NCBI GenBank assembly: GCA_965197475.1
Contig: CBDANF010000003.1
Span: 384,001-448,000 of the forward strand
DNA: 64,000 nt
Source of the DNA: Candidatus Poribacteria bacterium
GTDB taxonomy: Bacteria; Poribacteria; WGA-4E; WGA-3G
Reading direction: 5' to 3'
Shown here: positions 50,432 to 55,669 of the stretch, in pieces
Layout of the letters: every line of letters starts with the position of its first letter
How positions within the stretch are numbered: the first letter of the stretch is position 1
The notes under the pieces: model-generated
What the model was told of the DNA's origin: nothing
The model's database searches: none
What the model saw: the letters and a program-made list of their open reading frames with translations, nothing else
Translations under genes and position numbers: made by a program

Positions 50432-50686
50432 TCATTCTTTCAAATAGTGTCGTGCGCGGGATTTTGCAAGGCGCATTAGGTGCTCAAGCTGCAAACAGTG
50501 GTTAAGTTCTGCCGTTTCTTCAGGGGCAAGTCCGGTTGTTTTCTCACGATGAATCAGATATGCAACCCGCTCCTTCGCTTCTTCAGAAGGGCAAAAATCT
50601 ACCAAATTTTGAGGTGTCGTCCCCGCCGCTATGAAATCAATGATTTCTCTATAAATGGGTGAGATTTGCATTGAATTTTCCTCCAT
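50432..50686 (-). CDS. Small hypothetical helical protein (antitoxin-like)
   Basis: 84 aa; EIIDFIAAG...PSEEAKERV..L..REK...L.PEE..EL...LEHLMRLAK.RAR. Confidence 0.65.
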   Translation of the reverse strand: MEENSMQISPIYREIIDFIAAGTTPQNLVDFCPSEEAKERVAYLIHREKTTGLAPEETAELNHCLQLEHLMRLAKSRARHYLKE

Positions 50687-50776
50687 AATTTGATGAATAA
50701 ACCTTACGTTTCAGTTTTACTTATAGTTTGTATCAAATGACCCCATGAGTTATACTATTAGTATTCGTTAAACTAA

Positions 50777-51391
50777 CGAGTAGATGTCCTCGGATCTGAG
50801 GAACCCGCAGGCAAACACATCGCTTTAGCGAAAAAAATCTCCTGTCGACTCAAGCTCAACGATGTTGAAGCCGACCTTGAAGTTTTAGCGACTTATGGGC
50901 TCGCAGGTCTCAGACGGCATCGGATCCTCCGATTGACCCAAGAAGCTTATGACCAAGATGCCTTGCTGAGTTATGAGGATTTGGCAGTGTTATTAACTAC
51001 CAGTCCTGCCACCGTCAAACGCGACATCCGAGCGTTGAAGCAGTCCGGCTATTTCGTGATGACGCGCGGGGCGAAACACGACATGGGCCCGGGACTGTCT
51101 CATAAGACGCAGATTCTTGAGTTGTCCTTCAAAGCATACACCTTCACCGAGATTGAGCAAAAGACGAACCACTCCGAACGGGCTGTCTACCGCTACTTGA
51201 GGGACTTCACACAAGTTGCCACGCTCCATCATCAAGGGTTCCCTAACGCTCAGATACGCCTGATTTCTCATCTCTCTGACCGGTTGATACGCGAGTATCT
51301 CTCGCTGTTCAAGGAATATCAACACACCGATCGCATGACCCAACTCCTTCACCCAGAACCAGAGGACACAAAAAAGGAGGATCTCTCATGA
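50777..51391 (+). pseudogene. DUF1670-like HTH protein, 5'-truncated
   Basis: Frame is open from 50777 with no start codon: EEPAGKH...RILRLTQEAYDQDALLSYEDLA.LL...TRG..HD.GPG.SHK...HS..AV.RY. Confidence 0.7.
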
Positions 51392-52272
51392 GCAAACCTC
51401 TAACACGCACGCAAATCAACGAGAAGAAATTCAGACGCATCAACGATAAATCCCTACGACAGTTGCTTATCCATCGCTTTCTCAATGACTACGGGTATGA
51501 CAAAGGCGAAGTCACTGCCACCGCCATTGTTGATGATATTCTCAAGACCGTTGAAGACTATTTCGTAATTACCCTCCCCTTGGAAAAACTCGCCACCGGT
51601 GATCAACTCCCAGATGAGCGTTTCCTAAGTTATGGACAACTCGTTTGGATGGCCGTCCCTATTGATGAACATCCAGAAAGAGGAAAGTCCATCGTCAAAA
51701 CTCGGATGAAACCCATCATCCTGACCTACCTCGCCGCAGAGGATATTGAATCTTTTAGAAACGGTTTCACCTCCCGGCAATTGCGGATCAATCGCTTGGT
51801 CCGCTGGTGTCATCAAGCTTATGACCAAGGGGCATTATTGACACAACTCGACTTGGCAGTTTTGCTCAATGTCTGCGATGCCGTTGTCTGTGATTATGTT
51901 AATGAATGGCAAAAAACCACTGGAGAACTCTTGCCCACCCGTGGCAATATCCATGACTTATCGGGGGCTATTACCCATAAGAAAGAGATCATAACCCTCT
52001 ATCTTCAAGGACATCTCACCCCCAGGATTGCCGCAAAGACCAAACACTCTAAGGAGGCAGTTGACCGATACATCCGCGATTATGAGAGCGTCAAAGTCGT
52101 TCACACCGCTACCGCAGATATTGACAAAATCTCACAGATTACACGACTTTCTAAACGTGTCATCTCTCAATATCTCGACCTCATACCGCAGCACCAACTC
52201 CAAGCCATAGATGCAGACCTTGCCAATTCAGACTCAAACGATGAAGCCACTCACCAAGGAGAAGCCCAATGA
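51388..52272 (+). CDS. DUF1670-like protein
   Basis: AYDQGALLTQLDLAVLL, LPTRGNIHD, THKKEII.LYL, HSKEAVDRYIRDY; AGGAGG RBS, ATGA coupling. Confidence 0.8.
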   Translation: MSKPLTRTQINEKKFRRINDKSLRQLLIHRFLNDYGYDKGEVTATAIVDDILKTVEDYFVITLPLEKLATGDQLPDERFLSYGQLVWMAVPIDEHPERGKSIVKTRMKPIILTYLAAEDIESFRNGFTSRQLRINRLVRWCHQAYDQGALLTQLDLAVLLNVCDAVVCDYVNEWQKTTGELLPTRGNIHDLSGAITHKKEIITLYLQGHLTPRIAAKTKHSKEAVDRYIRDYESVKVVHTATADIDKISQITRLSKRVISQYLDLIPQHQLQAIDADLANSDSNDEATHQGEAQ

Positions 52273-52339
52273 GACCCTAATCCTATGTTCCCGACGAACT
52301 TTACTTCGCAAAACCGGGGCAGGTGCCTTGAAAGGACGC

Positions 52340-52369
52340 TTGACAGTCCGCTATCGGTTTTGCTATACT
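52340..52369 (+). promoter_or_regulatory. Sigma-70 promoter inside the DUF1670 element
   Basis: TTGACA-N18-TATACT with extended TG; ATG 6 nt downstream opens a 40-aa ORF (52376..52498). Confidence 0.6.
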
Positions 52370-52500
52370 TTAGACATGTGGATCGCTCAGCGCATCGTTT
52401 CTCAAAGAGGATGCTCGCGATCCCAACGCAACCCACTCATCAACGATCGCTGGGAAGCCAATAAACATCAGCCTTCCAGCTATCCTATGGTCATTTGATA

Positions 52501-54615
52501 CTATTTCAAAATCAACATTTTCCGCGTGGCAGAGAATTCTCCTGCTGTTAACGTATAAAAATAGACACCACTCGCCACAGACTCACCTACATCGTTTTTG
52601 GCATCCCAATACGCTGCACGGCTACGATTCTGATAGAGTCCCGCAGTCTGATTGCCCAACGCAAGTCTCCGAACCAAATTTCCATCTGCAGCATAGATGG
52701 ATATGGCGACCTCCGCAGGTGCAGCTAACTGATACGGTATCCATGTTTCTGGGTTGAACGGGTTTGGATAGTTGGGTAAGAGTGCTGTCTCTTTTGGCAG
52801 CGATGTAATCAATAGTTGTTCAAGCATGAGAATACCACGTTGGAAGGTTGGATCAGTGATGTTAACTTTTCGTGCTTCACTTAACCATTGCCGGAGATTG
52901 TTTGCTGAGAACATCTCTTGCGCATCTGCATAGACTGCTGGCGCGCCTGCCGTAGTTCCTAAAGCACCAGCGACTAATACAAGGTCTATAATATCAACCC
53001 TTCCGTCACTATTAACATCTGATGCATTTCCTCTGCCCTTTCCAAAATTAGTGGCAACAAGCACTAAATCTTGTATATTGACAACGCAATCCTTATTCAC
53101 GTCTTTAGTATTAGTGGTGGAACAAGTGATACTTTGACCATCCTCTGAAATAACAGTTTTTAATAATTGTGCACCATCAATCCATGCATAAGATTTTTTC
53201 CCTTCATTGTCTGATAAGATGACATCCCGTAAACCCAATTTTGAAGTTATAATTGCTTGGACTTTAAATTTAACAGTAGCGAATGTTCCATCACCATTAC
53301 TAACATCACCAGATAAGGAAAGCGATGCAAGTTGCACCGTGCCTGAATGTTGATTTGCAATAGGTTGAACTGGCACGCCTCCAGATAAATAATCCCCGTA
53401 TTTGGTTTCTACATATTCAAGCGCATCGGGATCAAATTCTATTGTTGCTTGATACCCAGAGAGGTTTTTACCGTTCGTAATTTTAACATCAAATGCTAAT
53501 TCTTCTCCAATAGTTAAAGATGTAACCGATTCTGGTGAAATACTGACAATTGGATAAGTTGTCAAATCGTATAGTAAAACTGTGTTATCATGACCAGAAG
53601 CAGCTAATATATTACCATCAGGAGAAATCACCATATTATAGATATTTCTTTTGGATAATGTCCGTTTATATTCAAAAGTTGTAACATCAAAAAAATGTAT
53701 TCCATAAGCATCACCACTTATAAGTATATTACTATCTTGAAAGATCAGTGACGATATAATGAAAAGATCACGGTGAAAAAAATTACGGTGAAATTTAAAT
53801 TTCAAATTCTTTGTTTTAGTATTATATAAATAAATATTACGATGATCACCAGCTGCTAAAACATTCCCGTCTGGAGAATATGATACAGAGAAAACTTGAT
53901 CTTGTATTTTAAGTAATGTAACTTCAGTATTTAATTCTGCGTCGTATATCCAAATTCCAAGGCTACAAGCGATGGATAATTCTTTACCATCTGGAGAGTA
54001 ACTTAATCCTCTAATTCCCGGGACTGTTGTAGATGAGGTGGCGAAGGGAACTGATGTAGGACTCGCTTCAGACATATCTACAGCCGGTATATCTGTAGGC
54101 AAGACATCTATAGGTATATCACCTACAGGCAATGCATCTGTAGTGGGTTCGTCTACATTTGAATTCCAAAAACGAATTCCTTTTGGGCCCGCCCCAGCTA
54201 AAGTTGTACCGTCTGGGGAAAAGAGGACATAATCTCTATACCCCTCACCATCTAATAGTAACAGCTTAGGTTCTCCAGTGATTGCATCATATAGCTTATC
54301 ACCACATACAAGCGACTTACCATCTGAGGAATATCGAACATATTTCCCATTAACGTCCTTAATAGTTAATTTTACTGTCTTATTCTCAATATCCCATAGG
54401 TCTACCTGCCGTATCCAATTGACGACACTTGCTAATGTCTTACCATCTGGAGAAAAATCTAAATCTCTAAAAAGTTGATTATCTTGCGTGCATAAACGCG
54501 CTAAAGCATTTTCAGGTAAGCTTAATTGTGTGCAACTCTGTGCTAAAATATCTAACGCAGATAGATTCAATCCCAGAAATAGCGTTAGAAAAATCGAAAA
54601 GTATAGTTTTTTCAT
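52501..54615 (-). CDS. Secreted WD40-cohesin-dockerin protein with T9SS-like C-terminal domain
   Basis: Signal peptide, SPDG repeats, NLSGYQATIEFDP, DVNKDCVVNIQDLVLVA, NYPNPFNPETWIPY...RKMLILK. Confidence 0.88.
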   Translation of the reverse strand: MKKLYFSIFLTLFLGLNLSALDILAQSCTQLSLPENALARLCTQDNQLFRDLDFSPDGKTLASVVNWIRQVDLWDIENKTVKLTIKDVNGKYVRYSSDGKSLVCGDKLYDAITGEPKLLLLDGEGYRDYVLFSPDGTTLAGAGPKGIRFWNSNVDEPTTDALPVGDIPIDVLPTDIPAVDMSEASPTSVPFATSSTTVPGIRGLSYSPDGKELSIACSLGIWIYDAELNTEVTLLKIQDQVFSVSYSPDGNVLAAGDHRNIYLYNTKTKNLKFKFHRNFFHRDLFIISSLIFQDSNILISGDAYGIHFFDVTTFEYKRTLSKRNIYNMVISPDGNILAASGHDNTVLLYDLTTYPIVSISPESVTSLTIGEELAFDVKITNGKNLSGYQATIEFDPDALEYVETKYGDYLSGGVPVQPIANQHSGTVQLASLSLSGDVSNGDGTFATVKFKVQAIITSKLGLRDVILSDNEGKKSYAWIDGAQLLKTVISEDGQSITCSTTNTKDVNKDCVVNIQDLVLVATNFGKGRGNASDVNSDGRVDIIDLVLVAGALGTTAGAPAVYADAQEMFSANNLRQWLSEARKVNITDPTFQRGILMLEQLLITSLPKETALLPNYPNPFNPETWIPYQLAAPAEVAISIYAADGNLVRRLALGNQTAGLYQNRSRAAYWDAKNDVGESVASGVYFYTLTAGEFSATRKMLILK

Positions 54616-54757: not shown

Positions 54758-54994
54758 TTATTCATTTAGCATTTGTGCAAACGCTTCAATATTTTGCACT
54801 TCAGCAGCTTCAAGATGCAGCTGTTTGAGTTTTTGTGAATCGGCAATGCTTTGAAGTGCTGGTATTAGGGCGCGCACTGCATCTACAGCGAATCGTCTTT
54901 CAAGCAAAGCCAAAGTATTTTCTATGGTGGTCTCTCTGGCAAACTTTTCACTTAATTTTTCACATAGGAGTTGGTAAGTTTTAGATTCTTGCAT
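54758..54994 (-). CDS. Putative internally translated small Rpn C-terminal protein (RpnS-like)
   Basis: In-frame GGAGG-GACTC-ATG inside the Rpn gene, giving a 78-aa product MQESKTYQ... Confidence 0.55.
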   Translation of the reverse strand: MQESKTYQLLCEKLSEKFARETTIENTLALLERRFAVDAVRALIPALQSIADSQKLKQLHLEAAEVQNIEAFAQMLNE

Positions 54995-55633
54995 GAGTCC
55001 CTCCGATACGAGTCGTTCCAACAACTCAGAATTATAGACTACTCCACCGAAGAGGTAGATTCCGTAAAGTAGTTCTGCTTGTGTCTGCTGATCAATAAGG
55101 CTGGAATGCGTCGCGTCAATGCATTGTTGCAACCAGCGTTCAAGATCCATCCCTGCTGGCGGTTTCATGAGTGGGGTTAAGGGCAGAAGTCCTGGTGCCT
55201 GCATCTCTAAAATCGCTTGTCCATCTATTTTTATAAGCCGGATGACTTTATAGCGATTGACGTGTTCGTAACCGTTCCTTTTGTAGGCGTATCCGCCTGG
55301 GTCGTTCCTTCCAGCTCTTGGATGAAAATAGATGACGTTAGAATAGACAGGCATCTGGTATTTACCTACGAGGTATCCCTGATATTGTGCGTTTCTTGCC
55401 CACATCGGTTTTTCTGTACTCTCGCGGAGTTGCAATTCGACATGTAAAATTGCTTCTTGATTGTTGATTCGGACGCGCTTTGTGATGTCGGTGCGCTTCG
55501 CGATGACAGTCTGTTGTTCAGTGTCAAGATGCTCAAGTACTTCAACATCGTCAACGTTGAGGACGAATTTCGAGAGGTCTTCGGCGTGATCTGTCCATAA
55601 AATTTTCCCCATATTATCGTAATCTTGTGCCAT
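54758..55633 (-). CDS. Rpn-family (recombination-promoting nuclease, PD-(D/E)XK) protein
   Basis: KRTD...ILHVELQ, M..R...Y, PVYS.VIY, LLPLTPLM, C-terminal LLERRF helical domain. Confidence 0.8.
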   Translation of the reverse strand: MAQDYDNMGKILWTDHAEDLSKFVLNVDDVEVLEHLDTEQQTVIAKRTDITKRVRINNQEAILHVELQLRESTEKPMWARNAQYQGYLVGKYQMPVYSNVIYFHPRAGRNDPGGYAYKRNGYEHVNRYKVIRLIKIDGQAILEMQAPGLLPLTPLMKPPAGMDLERWLQQCIDATHSSLIDQQTQAELLYGIYLFGGVVYNSELLERLVSEGLMQESKTYQLLCEKLSEKFARETTIENTLALLERRFAVDAVRALIPALQSIADSQKLKQLHLEAAEVQNIEAFAQMLNE

Positions 55634-55639
55634 AGAAGT

Positions 55640-55669
55640 ATTATACACCGGTAGGTAGAGAAATGTCAA
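55640..55669 (-). promoter_or_regulatory. Sigma-70 promoter giving a probably leaderless rpn mRNA
   Basis: TTGACA-N18-TATAAT, 6 nt before ATG 55633, no SD sequence. Confidence 0.65.

Follow-up and report, generated by a model that had tools for sequence, protein, structure and literature searches.

Insertion sequences (ISs) of the IS110/IS1111 type insert into repeated host sequences with no or minimal duplication and in a fixed orientation, and their donor and target share a short sequence. ISs of the IS200/IS605 type cause no duplication, have asymmetric tips, insert 3' of a fixed tetra- or pentanucleotide and excise seamlessly. Integrases that act at tRNA genes carry a copy of the 3' end of the gene, so that the target gene stays intact. 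For IS1111, subterminal repeats, a non-coding region downstream of the genes and site-specific insertion have been described (PMC11187229). Here, we present an analysis of an element located in a 64,000-nucleotide (nt) stretch of DNA, the window, from a metagenome-assembled genome (MAG) of Candidatus Poribacteria (G000; 5.7 Mb in 3 contigs, 92.7% complete, contamination 6.97%; the window is C3:384001-448000). The element is a 2016-bp IS that is active in this genome, and its only genes encode two paralogous proteins of the family DUF1670. It inserts, in one orientation and without duplication of the target, at the exact boundary of the penultimate and last codons in genes for proteins with a type IX secretion system (T9SS) sorting domain. 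In behavior, the element is closest to the IS1111 type, while the DEDD transposase that defines that type has no match in it.

The initial annotation of the window described two translationally coupled DUF1670-like paralogues, the first without its 5' end, within a segment more GC-rich than its left flank and bracketed by a perfect 13-bp inverted repeat; it read the whole as an internally deleted copy of a poorly described transposon family. The descriptive part of this account holds throughout. The two arms, GTATCAAATGACC and GGTCATTTGATAC, are exact complements, and the GC content of the element interior is 47-51% versus 43-44% in the left flank. The 13-mer occurs exactly 38 times genome-wide, always at the ends of 20 element copies and never elsewhere; allowing one mismatch, 40 occurrences lie inside element copies and 1 outside. 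Because the 13-mer is confined to the ends of element copies, the repeat is not a product of chance. A BLAST search with a full copy, the check that had been proposed for full-length relatives, returned 18 full copies sharing the same ends, the window copy and one 432-bp stump. The full copies measure 2003-2012 bp between the outer repeat edges and are 92.7-100% identical; with the tips included, the element is 2016 bp long in full copies versus 1784 bp in the window. The sole difference in structure is the loss of 232 bp from the window copy (full-copy positions 68-299), such that window 50730-50796 corresponds to full-copy positions 1-67 and window 50796-52501 to positions 300-2004. All that this deletion removes is the 5' part of orfA: its ribosome site, its start and ~72 codons. 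The window copy is non-autonomous, its orfA having been decapitated by the deletion.

In the full copies, orfA spans positions 83-895 and orfB positions 892-1776, with an ATGA overlap that is also present in the window (51388-51391). Both open reading frames (ORFs) have approximately normal length in 14 of the 18 full copies (270 and 294 amino acids [aa] in 13 copies, 269 and 294 aa in one); in the remaining four, orfA is fused to orfB by one extra base (564 aa), lengthened by a frameshift, split, or truncated. None of the 18 contains a third gene, and all 39 DUF1670 matches in G000 lie inside element copies. Thus, while the window copy is indeed internally deleted and its family undescribed, the deletion hides no transposase gene, and the proposal that the DUF1670 pair is accessory to a missing transposase is not supported, since the full copies hold only these two genes.

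The inserted DNA extends beyond the inverted repeat by 7 nt at the left and 5 nt at the right. All copies have in common a 12-nt sequence that precedes the repeat on the left (TAYTTATAGTTT) and the TATTT that follows it on the right, and the right flanks of the copies are alike. Among copies that are 100% identical over 2004 bp, the left 5-mer varies (TATTT, CACTT, TACTT) and the right 5-mer is always TATTT, from which it follows that the left 5-mer belongs to the target and the right TATTT to the element, and that neither TA nor any other target sequence is duplicated. The alternative reading of the ends in the initial annotation, a 10-bp repeat with a TA duplication at a GTAC target, is therefore superseded by ends that lie 7 and 5 nt further out. 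Two other boundary models, one that placed the left TACTTATAGTTT inside the element, with insertion 5' of TATTT, and one with a 5-bp or TA duplication, were rejected because the left 5-mer differs in identical copies and, with one more base, reads as a last codon plus stop.

Indeed, read on the opposite strand, the 6 nt to the left of ATAGTTT are a Lys codon (AAG/AAA) plus stop codon (TAA/TAG/TGA) in 19 of the 20 copies in G000. Because this 6-mer differs among 100% identical copies, it belongs to the target and not to the element. Of 22 left junctions outside G000, in genomes and metagenomes, 16 also have a remnant of a last codon plus stop, and in two lineages with the left tip TAAGTT (L047 and L050, the right end being recovered for L050) this displaced remnant is Arg plus stop. 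The left tip reads ATAGTTT, AAAGTTT or TAAGTT[TC] in 22/22 left ends of relatives and metagenomes, the orfB of which is 56-91% identical. The right tip is TATTT at all 20 right ends in G000 and at 18 of 19 elsewhere. The exception is L050, in which the right tip is TATCT (AGA-TA, Arg plus stop), the target ORF ends ...KKMILLR and the left remnant is CGA TAG.

On the other strand, 18 of the 20 right flanks in G000 are the ends of long ORFs finishing ...TRKM[LV]I.K, of the T9SS sorting-domain type; the target ORF in the window matches TIGR04183 (Por_Secre_tail) with 34.9 bits versus a cut-off of 23, over residues 616-702 of 704. A search with one 85-aa sorting-domain query gave 51 sorting-domain ORF ends in G000, 18 of which are occupied by the element. 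All 18 occupied ends read AAA TAG, and the stop codons of 20 unoccupied ends with the same pattern are mixed (13 TAA, 6 TAG, 1 TGA). Because the right tip supplies a replacement Lys codon plus stop, the target protein is unchanged. On the element strand, the target is TAYTT^CARAATNANCATYTT, where ^ marks the point of insertion. Two copies (C3:845190 and C3:3736918) lie off sorting-domain ends, and their right flanks, judged by eye, agree with 7 and 8 of the 12 positions of the target consensus; the left flank of C3:845190 is shared with another copy, which suggests that this copy is rearranged or an assembly join.

Orthologous empty sites were found in two relatives (G021 and G053), where ...cattatcattt runs uninterrupted into TATTTCAAAATCAAC. 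In six other members of the genus, TACTT is directly followed by CA.AAT.AAC, as the left remnant of the window copy (TTACTT) joined to its right flank would give. The empty site of one further copy (L005) was uninformative in five relatives, in which its flanks map far apart. The empty sites anticipated by the initial annotation exist, and they are 3' ends of T9SS genes, not GTAC.

Copies of 100% identity form three groups, of 4, 3 and 2 copies. The group of four has four different flanks on both sides; two members of the group of three share the left flank. Gene-free, MITE-like derivatives of 455, 457, 704 and 767 bp with both ends are present at T9SS gene ends (G023 and G038) in four of seven stretches fetched; no end pair was found in the other three at up to 2 mismatches. 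As such derivatives exist, the ends suffice in cis. A similar deletion form, in which 28 bp of the left end are joined to 150 bp of the right end, is present in two sponge runs. The distribution of the element is patchy, with a DNA match in 29 of 41 relatives and a protein-profile match (E ≤1e-20) in 35 of 151 genomes of the phylum, at 1 to at least 17 matches per genome. The identical copies, gene-free forms, empty site and patchiness establish that the element is mobile, and it has the multiple copies, identical ends, different contexts and empty orthologous site by which ISs in general are recognized. Among the 14 collinear 2004-bp copies, the ratio of nonsynonymous to synonymous substitution rates is 0.097 for orfA (43 pairs) and 0.067 for orfB (54 pairs); judged from these ratios, purifying selection acts strongly on both genes within the copies. 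We infer that the only genes of the element serve its mobility.

These properties place the element between several described systems. Like IS110/IS1111 elements (IS492, IS621), it inserts site specifically, without duplication and in a fixed orientation, has subterminal repeats and a sizeable non-coding region, and shares a short sequence between donor junction and target. Unlike these elements, it encodes two multi-helix-turn-helix (HTH) DUF1670 proteins, lacks a match to a DEDD (RuvC-like) transposase and has no supported guide RNA. It resembles IS200/IS605 elements in the lack of duplication, in its asymmetric tips, in the pentamer that stays at the left flank, and in a right end that finishes in a similar short sequence. 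However, it has no match to an HUH protein, its inverted repeat is of the double-strand type rather than made of like-oriented hairpins, and it shows no replication-strand bias, the last point being soft because GC skew is weak: 6 copies are in plus and 6 in minus orientation in the positive-skew part of C3, and 3 of 3 are in plus orientation in the clearly negative-skew part. The absence of a strand bias argues weakly against a single-strand, IS200-like route. With IS630/Tc1-mariner elements, the element has in common an A-T-rich target with TA, a bipartite HTH and, in homologues, a weak hidden Markov model likeness to the IS630 N-terminus; it differs in that no DDE domain was found, TA is not duplicated and the repeats lie 7 and 5 nt inside the tips. 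Finally, as in the case of integrases that target tRNA genes, the element brings a replacement for the displaced part of the target gene, but the replacement covers only 6 nt, a large family of paralogous genes that encode proteins serves as the target, and neither a tyrosine nor a serine integrase was recognized. On this analysis, the break geometry would fit conservative site-specific elements (IS110/IS1111, IS492) or IS200/IS605 and not cut-and-paste DDE elements.

OrfA of the full copies has 270 aa, or probably 266 aa counted from a second ATG. PF07900 (DUF1670) is assigned to 120/120 listed homologues of orfB (81-95% identical) and 120/120 listed homologues of orfA (63-95%), the assignment being the precomputed Pfam column of the homologues rather than a scan of the window proteins; orfA homologues often also carry PF08279. 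In the ESM Atlas, 10/10 of the feature-neighbor clusters shown carry DUF1670 in 100% of their members. A profile-to-profile alignment shows the OrfA and OrfB families to be paralogous nearly from end to end (hhalign probability 100%, E 3e-59). AlphaFold2 models (mean predicted local distance difference test score 82.8 for orfB and 80.7 for orfA) are mostly helical, with 2-4 short strands. They consist of an N-terminal part with three helices and a beta hairpin; a winged helix, for which the best rows are NiaR, BirA-type, Mga and Topo VI-A CAP domain structures (Z ~6); and an HTH of the sigma-region-4/LuxR/resolvase type (Z ~6), followed by a third HTH. Both proteins thus model as multi-HTH DNA binders. 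The search for an RNase H/DDE or recombinase fold that the initial annotation had recommended came back empty in NCBIfam, Foldseek and VIA-align: no RNase H-fold or integrase rows appeared among those listed by Foldseek or VIA-align, no DEDD transposase appeared among those of VIA-align, and neither protein matched an NCBIfam transposase model, IS110, IS200 and DDE models included, at E up to 0.1, although a DDE family outside these listings may have been missed. Pax paired domains are present among the weak Foldseek rows, and in the case of the Tn3 resolvase, the HTH alone aligns (Z 5.6, 42 residues), NCBIfam giving no match to serine recombinases. Some homologues weakly resemble the DNA-binding N-terminus of IS630/IS21 transposases in NCBIfam; the best of these, P0310, has an E of 3.5e-7 and 30 bits versus a cut-off of 100, over profile positions 24-78 of 299.

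All 13 related bacterial elements contain both genes and measure 1826-2105 bp (orfB 56-100% identical to the reference). Their left tip reads [AT][AT]A[AG]TT[TC], their repeat CA[AT]ATGACC, and their right end AYAC or similar plus TATTT. In most of them, as judged from the flanks by eye, a T9SS-like gene end lies beyond TATTT, e.g., KMLLLK or KKLILVK plus stop. A sister lineage with 76% DNA identity (L014, L016 and L038; from G035, G026 and a metagenome contig) is not located at a T9SS gene end; its site is a hairpin-like repeat, GAAACCGAGTTTT...AAAACYCGGTTTC, in which the inserted element lies between GAAACCGAGTTTT and TATTTCTTSAAAACYCGGTTTC. At the right end of this sister lineage, a second repeat-like site, GCTCATTTGATGATGG, lies 54 bp inside the first, and the lineage of the window has a weaker look-alike, CTCATCAACGAT, 53 bp inside the right repeat.

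Beyond bacteria, seven related loci were analyzed, six from ANME-2/Methanoperedens MAGs and one on a 2.2-kb contig binned as Bacteroidales. All of them contain a sharply bounded 1672-bp block with unrelated flanks, in which two DUF1670 genes overlap (279 and 252 aa), and the gene pair is present in 6/6 archaeal loci. The block ends in ...TTTACATCTCGGnCAAATGACC and GGTCATTTGkCCTTATTT, with the repeat core and a T(T)ATTT tip as in Poribacteria, and the core CAAATGACC/GGTCATTTG is found at the ends of the archaeal elements L029-L033. The archaeal orfB relative P0279 is 36% identical to the Poribacteria orfB, and the archaeal tip does not close an ORF. Judged from these alignments, the gene pair and the element ends stay linked across two domains of life. 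The survey of DUF1670 neighborhoods suggested by the initial annotation thus bears out conserved repeats in bacterial and archaeal elements, but not a third gene.

The family as a whole comprises 1004 representative clusters at E ≤0.001, from many bacterial phyla and archaea. Short stand-alone contigs are the usual signature of repeats in metagenome assemblies. Many close homologues are on contigs of ~2.0 kb, and 47 of 52 listed members of ten clusters of distant DUF1670 proteins are on contigs of ≤4 kb. A search for related loci with P0263 found no relative, and tblastn against plasmids gave no match. Natural A-B fusions have 521 and 532 aa, and forms of 930-952 aa contain three matched DUF1670 stretches; neither kind shows any other NCBIfam domain. 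There are four such three-stretch proteins, among the set P0333, P0254, P0255, P0260 and P0265, and P0254 is encoded on a contig of ~3.5 kb. In one 400-aa DUF1670 homologue, a C-terminal stretch matches the N-terminal part of DnaG primase (E 3e-9).

The finding that the ends suffice in cis in gene-free derivatives, together with the failure to find a catalytic domain in the element, would also fit if the whole family were non-autonomous, with a classical transposase encoded elsewhere moving the element and the DUF1670 genes being passengers or regulators. We consider this very improbable: elsewhere in the genome, the 13-bp repeat has 0 exact occurrences and 1 at one mismatch, both genes are under strong purifying selection, the gene pair is linked to the repeat core from bacteria to archaea, and stand-alone contigs of ~2 kb are common among the homologues.

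Rather, the DUF1670 pair is a candidate for the element's own recombinase, a reading that stands at about an even chance. The pair is taken as the recombinase because nothing else is encoded and because it is conserved under selection together with its presumed binding sites; that the pair is itself the mobilizing machinery was the other option in the initial annotation, and it is the one remaining, although no catalytic fold or motif was found. In this model, the two paralogues, which probably form a hetero-oligomer, given that fused forms exist, would use their winged-helix and HTH modules to bind the 13-bp repeats and would recognize TAYTT beside an end-like ATCAAnAT motif in the target. 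The ATCAAcAT of the target, read from a sequence logo, resembles the repeat (ATCAAAT), which may explain why the Lys-Met-Leu-Ile coding stretch is chosen. The DNA would be broken and rejoined 3' of the TAYTT pentamer. On the coding strand of the element, TAYTT is found directly 5' of all three break points, i.e., at the left junction, where it derives from the target, at the right tip, where it derives from the element, and in the empty target. Cutting after each pentamer and a swap of partners would result in seamless excision and restore the gene. The excised form would probably be a circle with the junction ...GATACTATTT^ATAGTTTGTATC..., in which the 13-bp repeats are 12 bp apart, and re-insertion would be conservative. 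Candidate active residues, in orfB numbering, are R139, R185, D190, H197, K198, H220, R227, Y228 and Y262. Across 99 aligned bacterial and archaeal proteins of the A and B types, positions conserved in at least 88% of the sequences fall almost entirely in the HTH half (R139, Q147, D155, R185, G186, D190, H197, K198, H220, R227, Y228 and Y262); H197 and Y228 are conserved in 100%, K198 and H220 in 99% and Y262 in 97%. Compared with the tyrosine-recombinase set R-K-H-R-H/W-Y, invariant R, H, K, H and R-Y are present, and their order and spacing differ. Prediction of an orfA-orfB complex gave a score of 0.13, with the mark at 0.32.

Several observations weigh against a catalytic role for the pair. 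VIA-align returned only winged-helix and HTH matches (orfB 128-251 and orfA 100-255, Z ~6), Foldseek no match at E ≤0.001, a sequence search of the PDB nothing relevant, and PHROGs only regulator-like HTH matches; in NCBIfam, orfB has no family and orfA matches HTH models only below threshold. The orfB family is also not recognizably related to the single Xer-like protein of the genome (hhalign probability 0.4%). The N-terminal 100-125 residues have few invariant positions in the 99-sequence alignment, and the invariant H, K, R and Y residues are found within HTH motifs, where DNA binding alone could explain them. Moreover, a circle or head-to-tail junction (13-mers 0-30 nt apart) was found 0 times in the genome contigs, and no circle joint was found in the sponge runs, which were available as assembled contigs only and as such cannot show one.

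Alternatively, then, the DUF1670 pair may only mark the ends and the target, by DNA binding and synapsis, while the cutting and joining falls to a host enzyme common to bacteria and archaea (a Xer-type tyrosine recombinase, a topoisomerase or a repair nuclease-ligase), as in the case of Xer-dependent integrating elements. We regard this as unlikely but deserving serious consideration. It would agree with the modeling of the proteins as winged-helix/HTH chains without a recognized catalytic fold, with the seamless, duplication-free insertion at a short sequence that donor and target have in common, which fits conservative site-specific recombination, and with the weak likeness of the HTH of some homologues, such as P0310, to the N-terminus of IS630/IS21 transposases. 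However, the two-gene design and the repeat core are shared by Poribacteria and Methanoperedens-type archaea, and because the design works in both domains, the host partner would have to be universal and to accept TAYTT sites unlike dif. Also, the 92.7%-complete genome contains a single Xer-like match, at 71.6 bits below a cut-off of 329.6 bits, and no host candidate was found.

The 3' non-coding region raises the question of an RNA component. The non-coding ends of the element are better conserved among copies than the genes: among the 14 collinear copies, the mean pairwise identity is 99.65% for the first 82 nt and 99.05% for the last 228 nt (full-copy positions 1777-2004, right repeat arm included), compared with 94.9% for orfA and 97.4% for orfB. 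The region contains a promoter-like site that points outward, with TTGACA, a spacer of 18 nt in the window and 17 nt in full copies, and TGnTATACT. In the scan of a full copy, this site has 11/12 hexamer matches plus the TG, and a comparison of seven lineages, the most distant at 76% DNA identity, shows TTGRNA-17-TATACT in every one. Two sponge metatranscriptome runs also contain the element, in strandless contigs that may stem from DNA carry-over and from which we claim no expression. It is conceivable that target choice or the whole reaction is guided by an RNA from this region, in the style of a seekRNA or bridge RNA, with the DUF1670 proteins as partners, and the 99% identity of the 228-nt region in copies whose synonymous sites differ by 0.18-0.45, the conserved promoter-like site and the IS1111-like combination of subterminal repeats, downstream non-coding region and site-specific insertion all speak for it. 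Nevertheless, we consider RNA guidance improbable. The region has no Rfam match at E up to 1, 0/29 predicted pairs covary among five sequences, and the fold is no better than that of shuffled sequences (z -1.65); its length varies from ~80 to 345 nt among related elements, archaeal elements having ~18 and 58 non-coding nt; and no convincing complementarity to the target is seen by eye.

Our searches of the literature found no paper mentioning DUF1670 or PF07900, and nothing relevant on ISs of Poribacteria, T9SS genes as IS targets, codon-restoring ISs or ISs of Methanoperedens, supplementary tables being outside the search. Apparently, the element represents an undescribed, widespread IS family with an unusual mode of insertion that spares the target gene. 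Tentatively, and with slightly less than even confidence, we propose that DUF1670 proteins form a new class of transposase or site-specific recombinase. Such an enzyme would be built from winged-helix and HTH modules only, act as a pair of paralogues (sometimes fused or with three stretches), be unrelated to DDE, DEDD, HUH, tyrosine, serine and Cas1 enzymes, and insert DNA 3' of TAYTT in bacteria and archaea, scarlessly and without duplication, the tip of one lineage being tuned for a harmless stay in T9SS gene ends. The proposal offers a testable function for a Pfam family. If the pair is catalytic, it adds a further transposase class; if not, it reveals a new way to recruit host recombination. 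The unusual precision of insertion, in one orientation, without duplication, at a target of ~17-20 nt and with repair of the gene by the element tip, makes the element interesting for genome engineering and for the question of how mobile DNA keeps the damage to its host small. Because the conserved promoter-like site points antisense into the gene at 18 of 51 gene ends, the element may affect the expression of secreted proteins, and it may drive rearrangements. The host genome is that of a sponge symbiont, and the public runs with the strongest match to the element are sponge metagenomes and metatranscriptomes.

Table 1. Features of the element copy in the window and of its target gene
Feature	Position	Strand	Remarks
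Element	50723..52506	+	ATAGTTT + 13-bp repeat ... 13-bp repeat + TATTT; 20 copies in the genome; matches elsewhere span the unit
Displaced original last codon plus stop, TTACTT	50717..50722	-	AAG TAA on the minus strand
Left tip ATAGTTT, outside the inverted repeat	50723..50729	+	
Left arm of the 13-bp subterminal inverted repeat	50730..50742	+	core CAAATGACC
Junction of the 232-bp deletion	50796..50797	+	from alignment to full copies
orfA remnant, DUF1670 paralogue A	50797..51391	+	startless
orfB, DUF1670 paralogue B	51388..52272	+	294 aa, intact; start overlaps the orfA stop (ATGA)
3' non-coding region	52273..52488	+	
Predicted sigma-70-like promoter	52340..52369	+	points out of the right end
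Right arm of the 13-bp inverted repeat	52489..52501	+	last base is the G of the new minus-strand TAG stop
Right tip TATTT	52502..52506	+	element-borne Lys codon plus stop (AAA TA on the minus strand)
Target gene, 704-aa protein with T9SS type A sorting domain	52501..54615	-	C-terminus ...TRKMLILK

In addition, we made several observations on other copies and on neighboring sequences. In two pairs of copies (C2:1160548/C3:845190 and C2:1472043/C3:49950), one flank is identical and the other is not, which suggests that copies have recombined with each other or that the assembly was joined at the repeat. In a related genome, one copy appears to be in four pieces over 5 kb (G020:C1:1410682-1415816) and was probably hit by other insertions. 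Near copy L005, a repeat of ~120 bp that is unrelated to the element (L005:930-1050; C3 of G000, ~685650-685770) is present many times in relatives, G006 contributing 9 listed hits (78-94% identity) and G021 another 17 (80-83%), and is probably a separate miniature element. In the window, an ORF of 303 aa downstream of the T9SS gene (54758-55669, minus strand) has no NCBIfam match. An ORF of 84 aa between trpS and the element (50432-50686, minus strand) is without an NCBIfam family, and its position varies in the genus, with a match elsewhere in G044, G007 and others.

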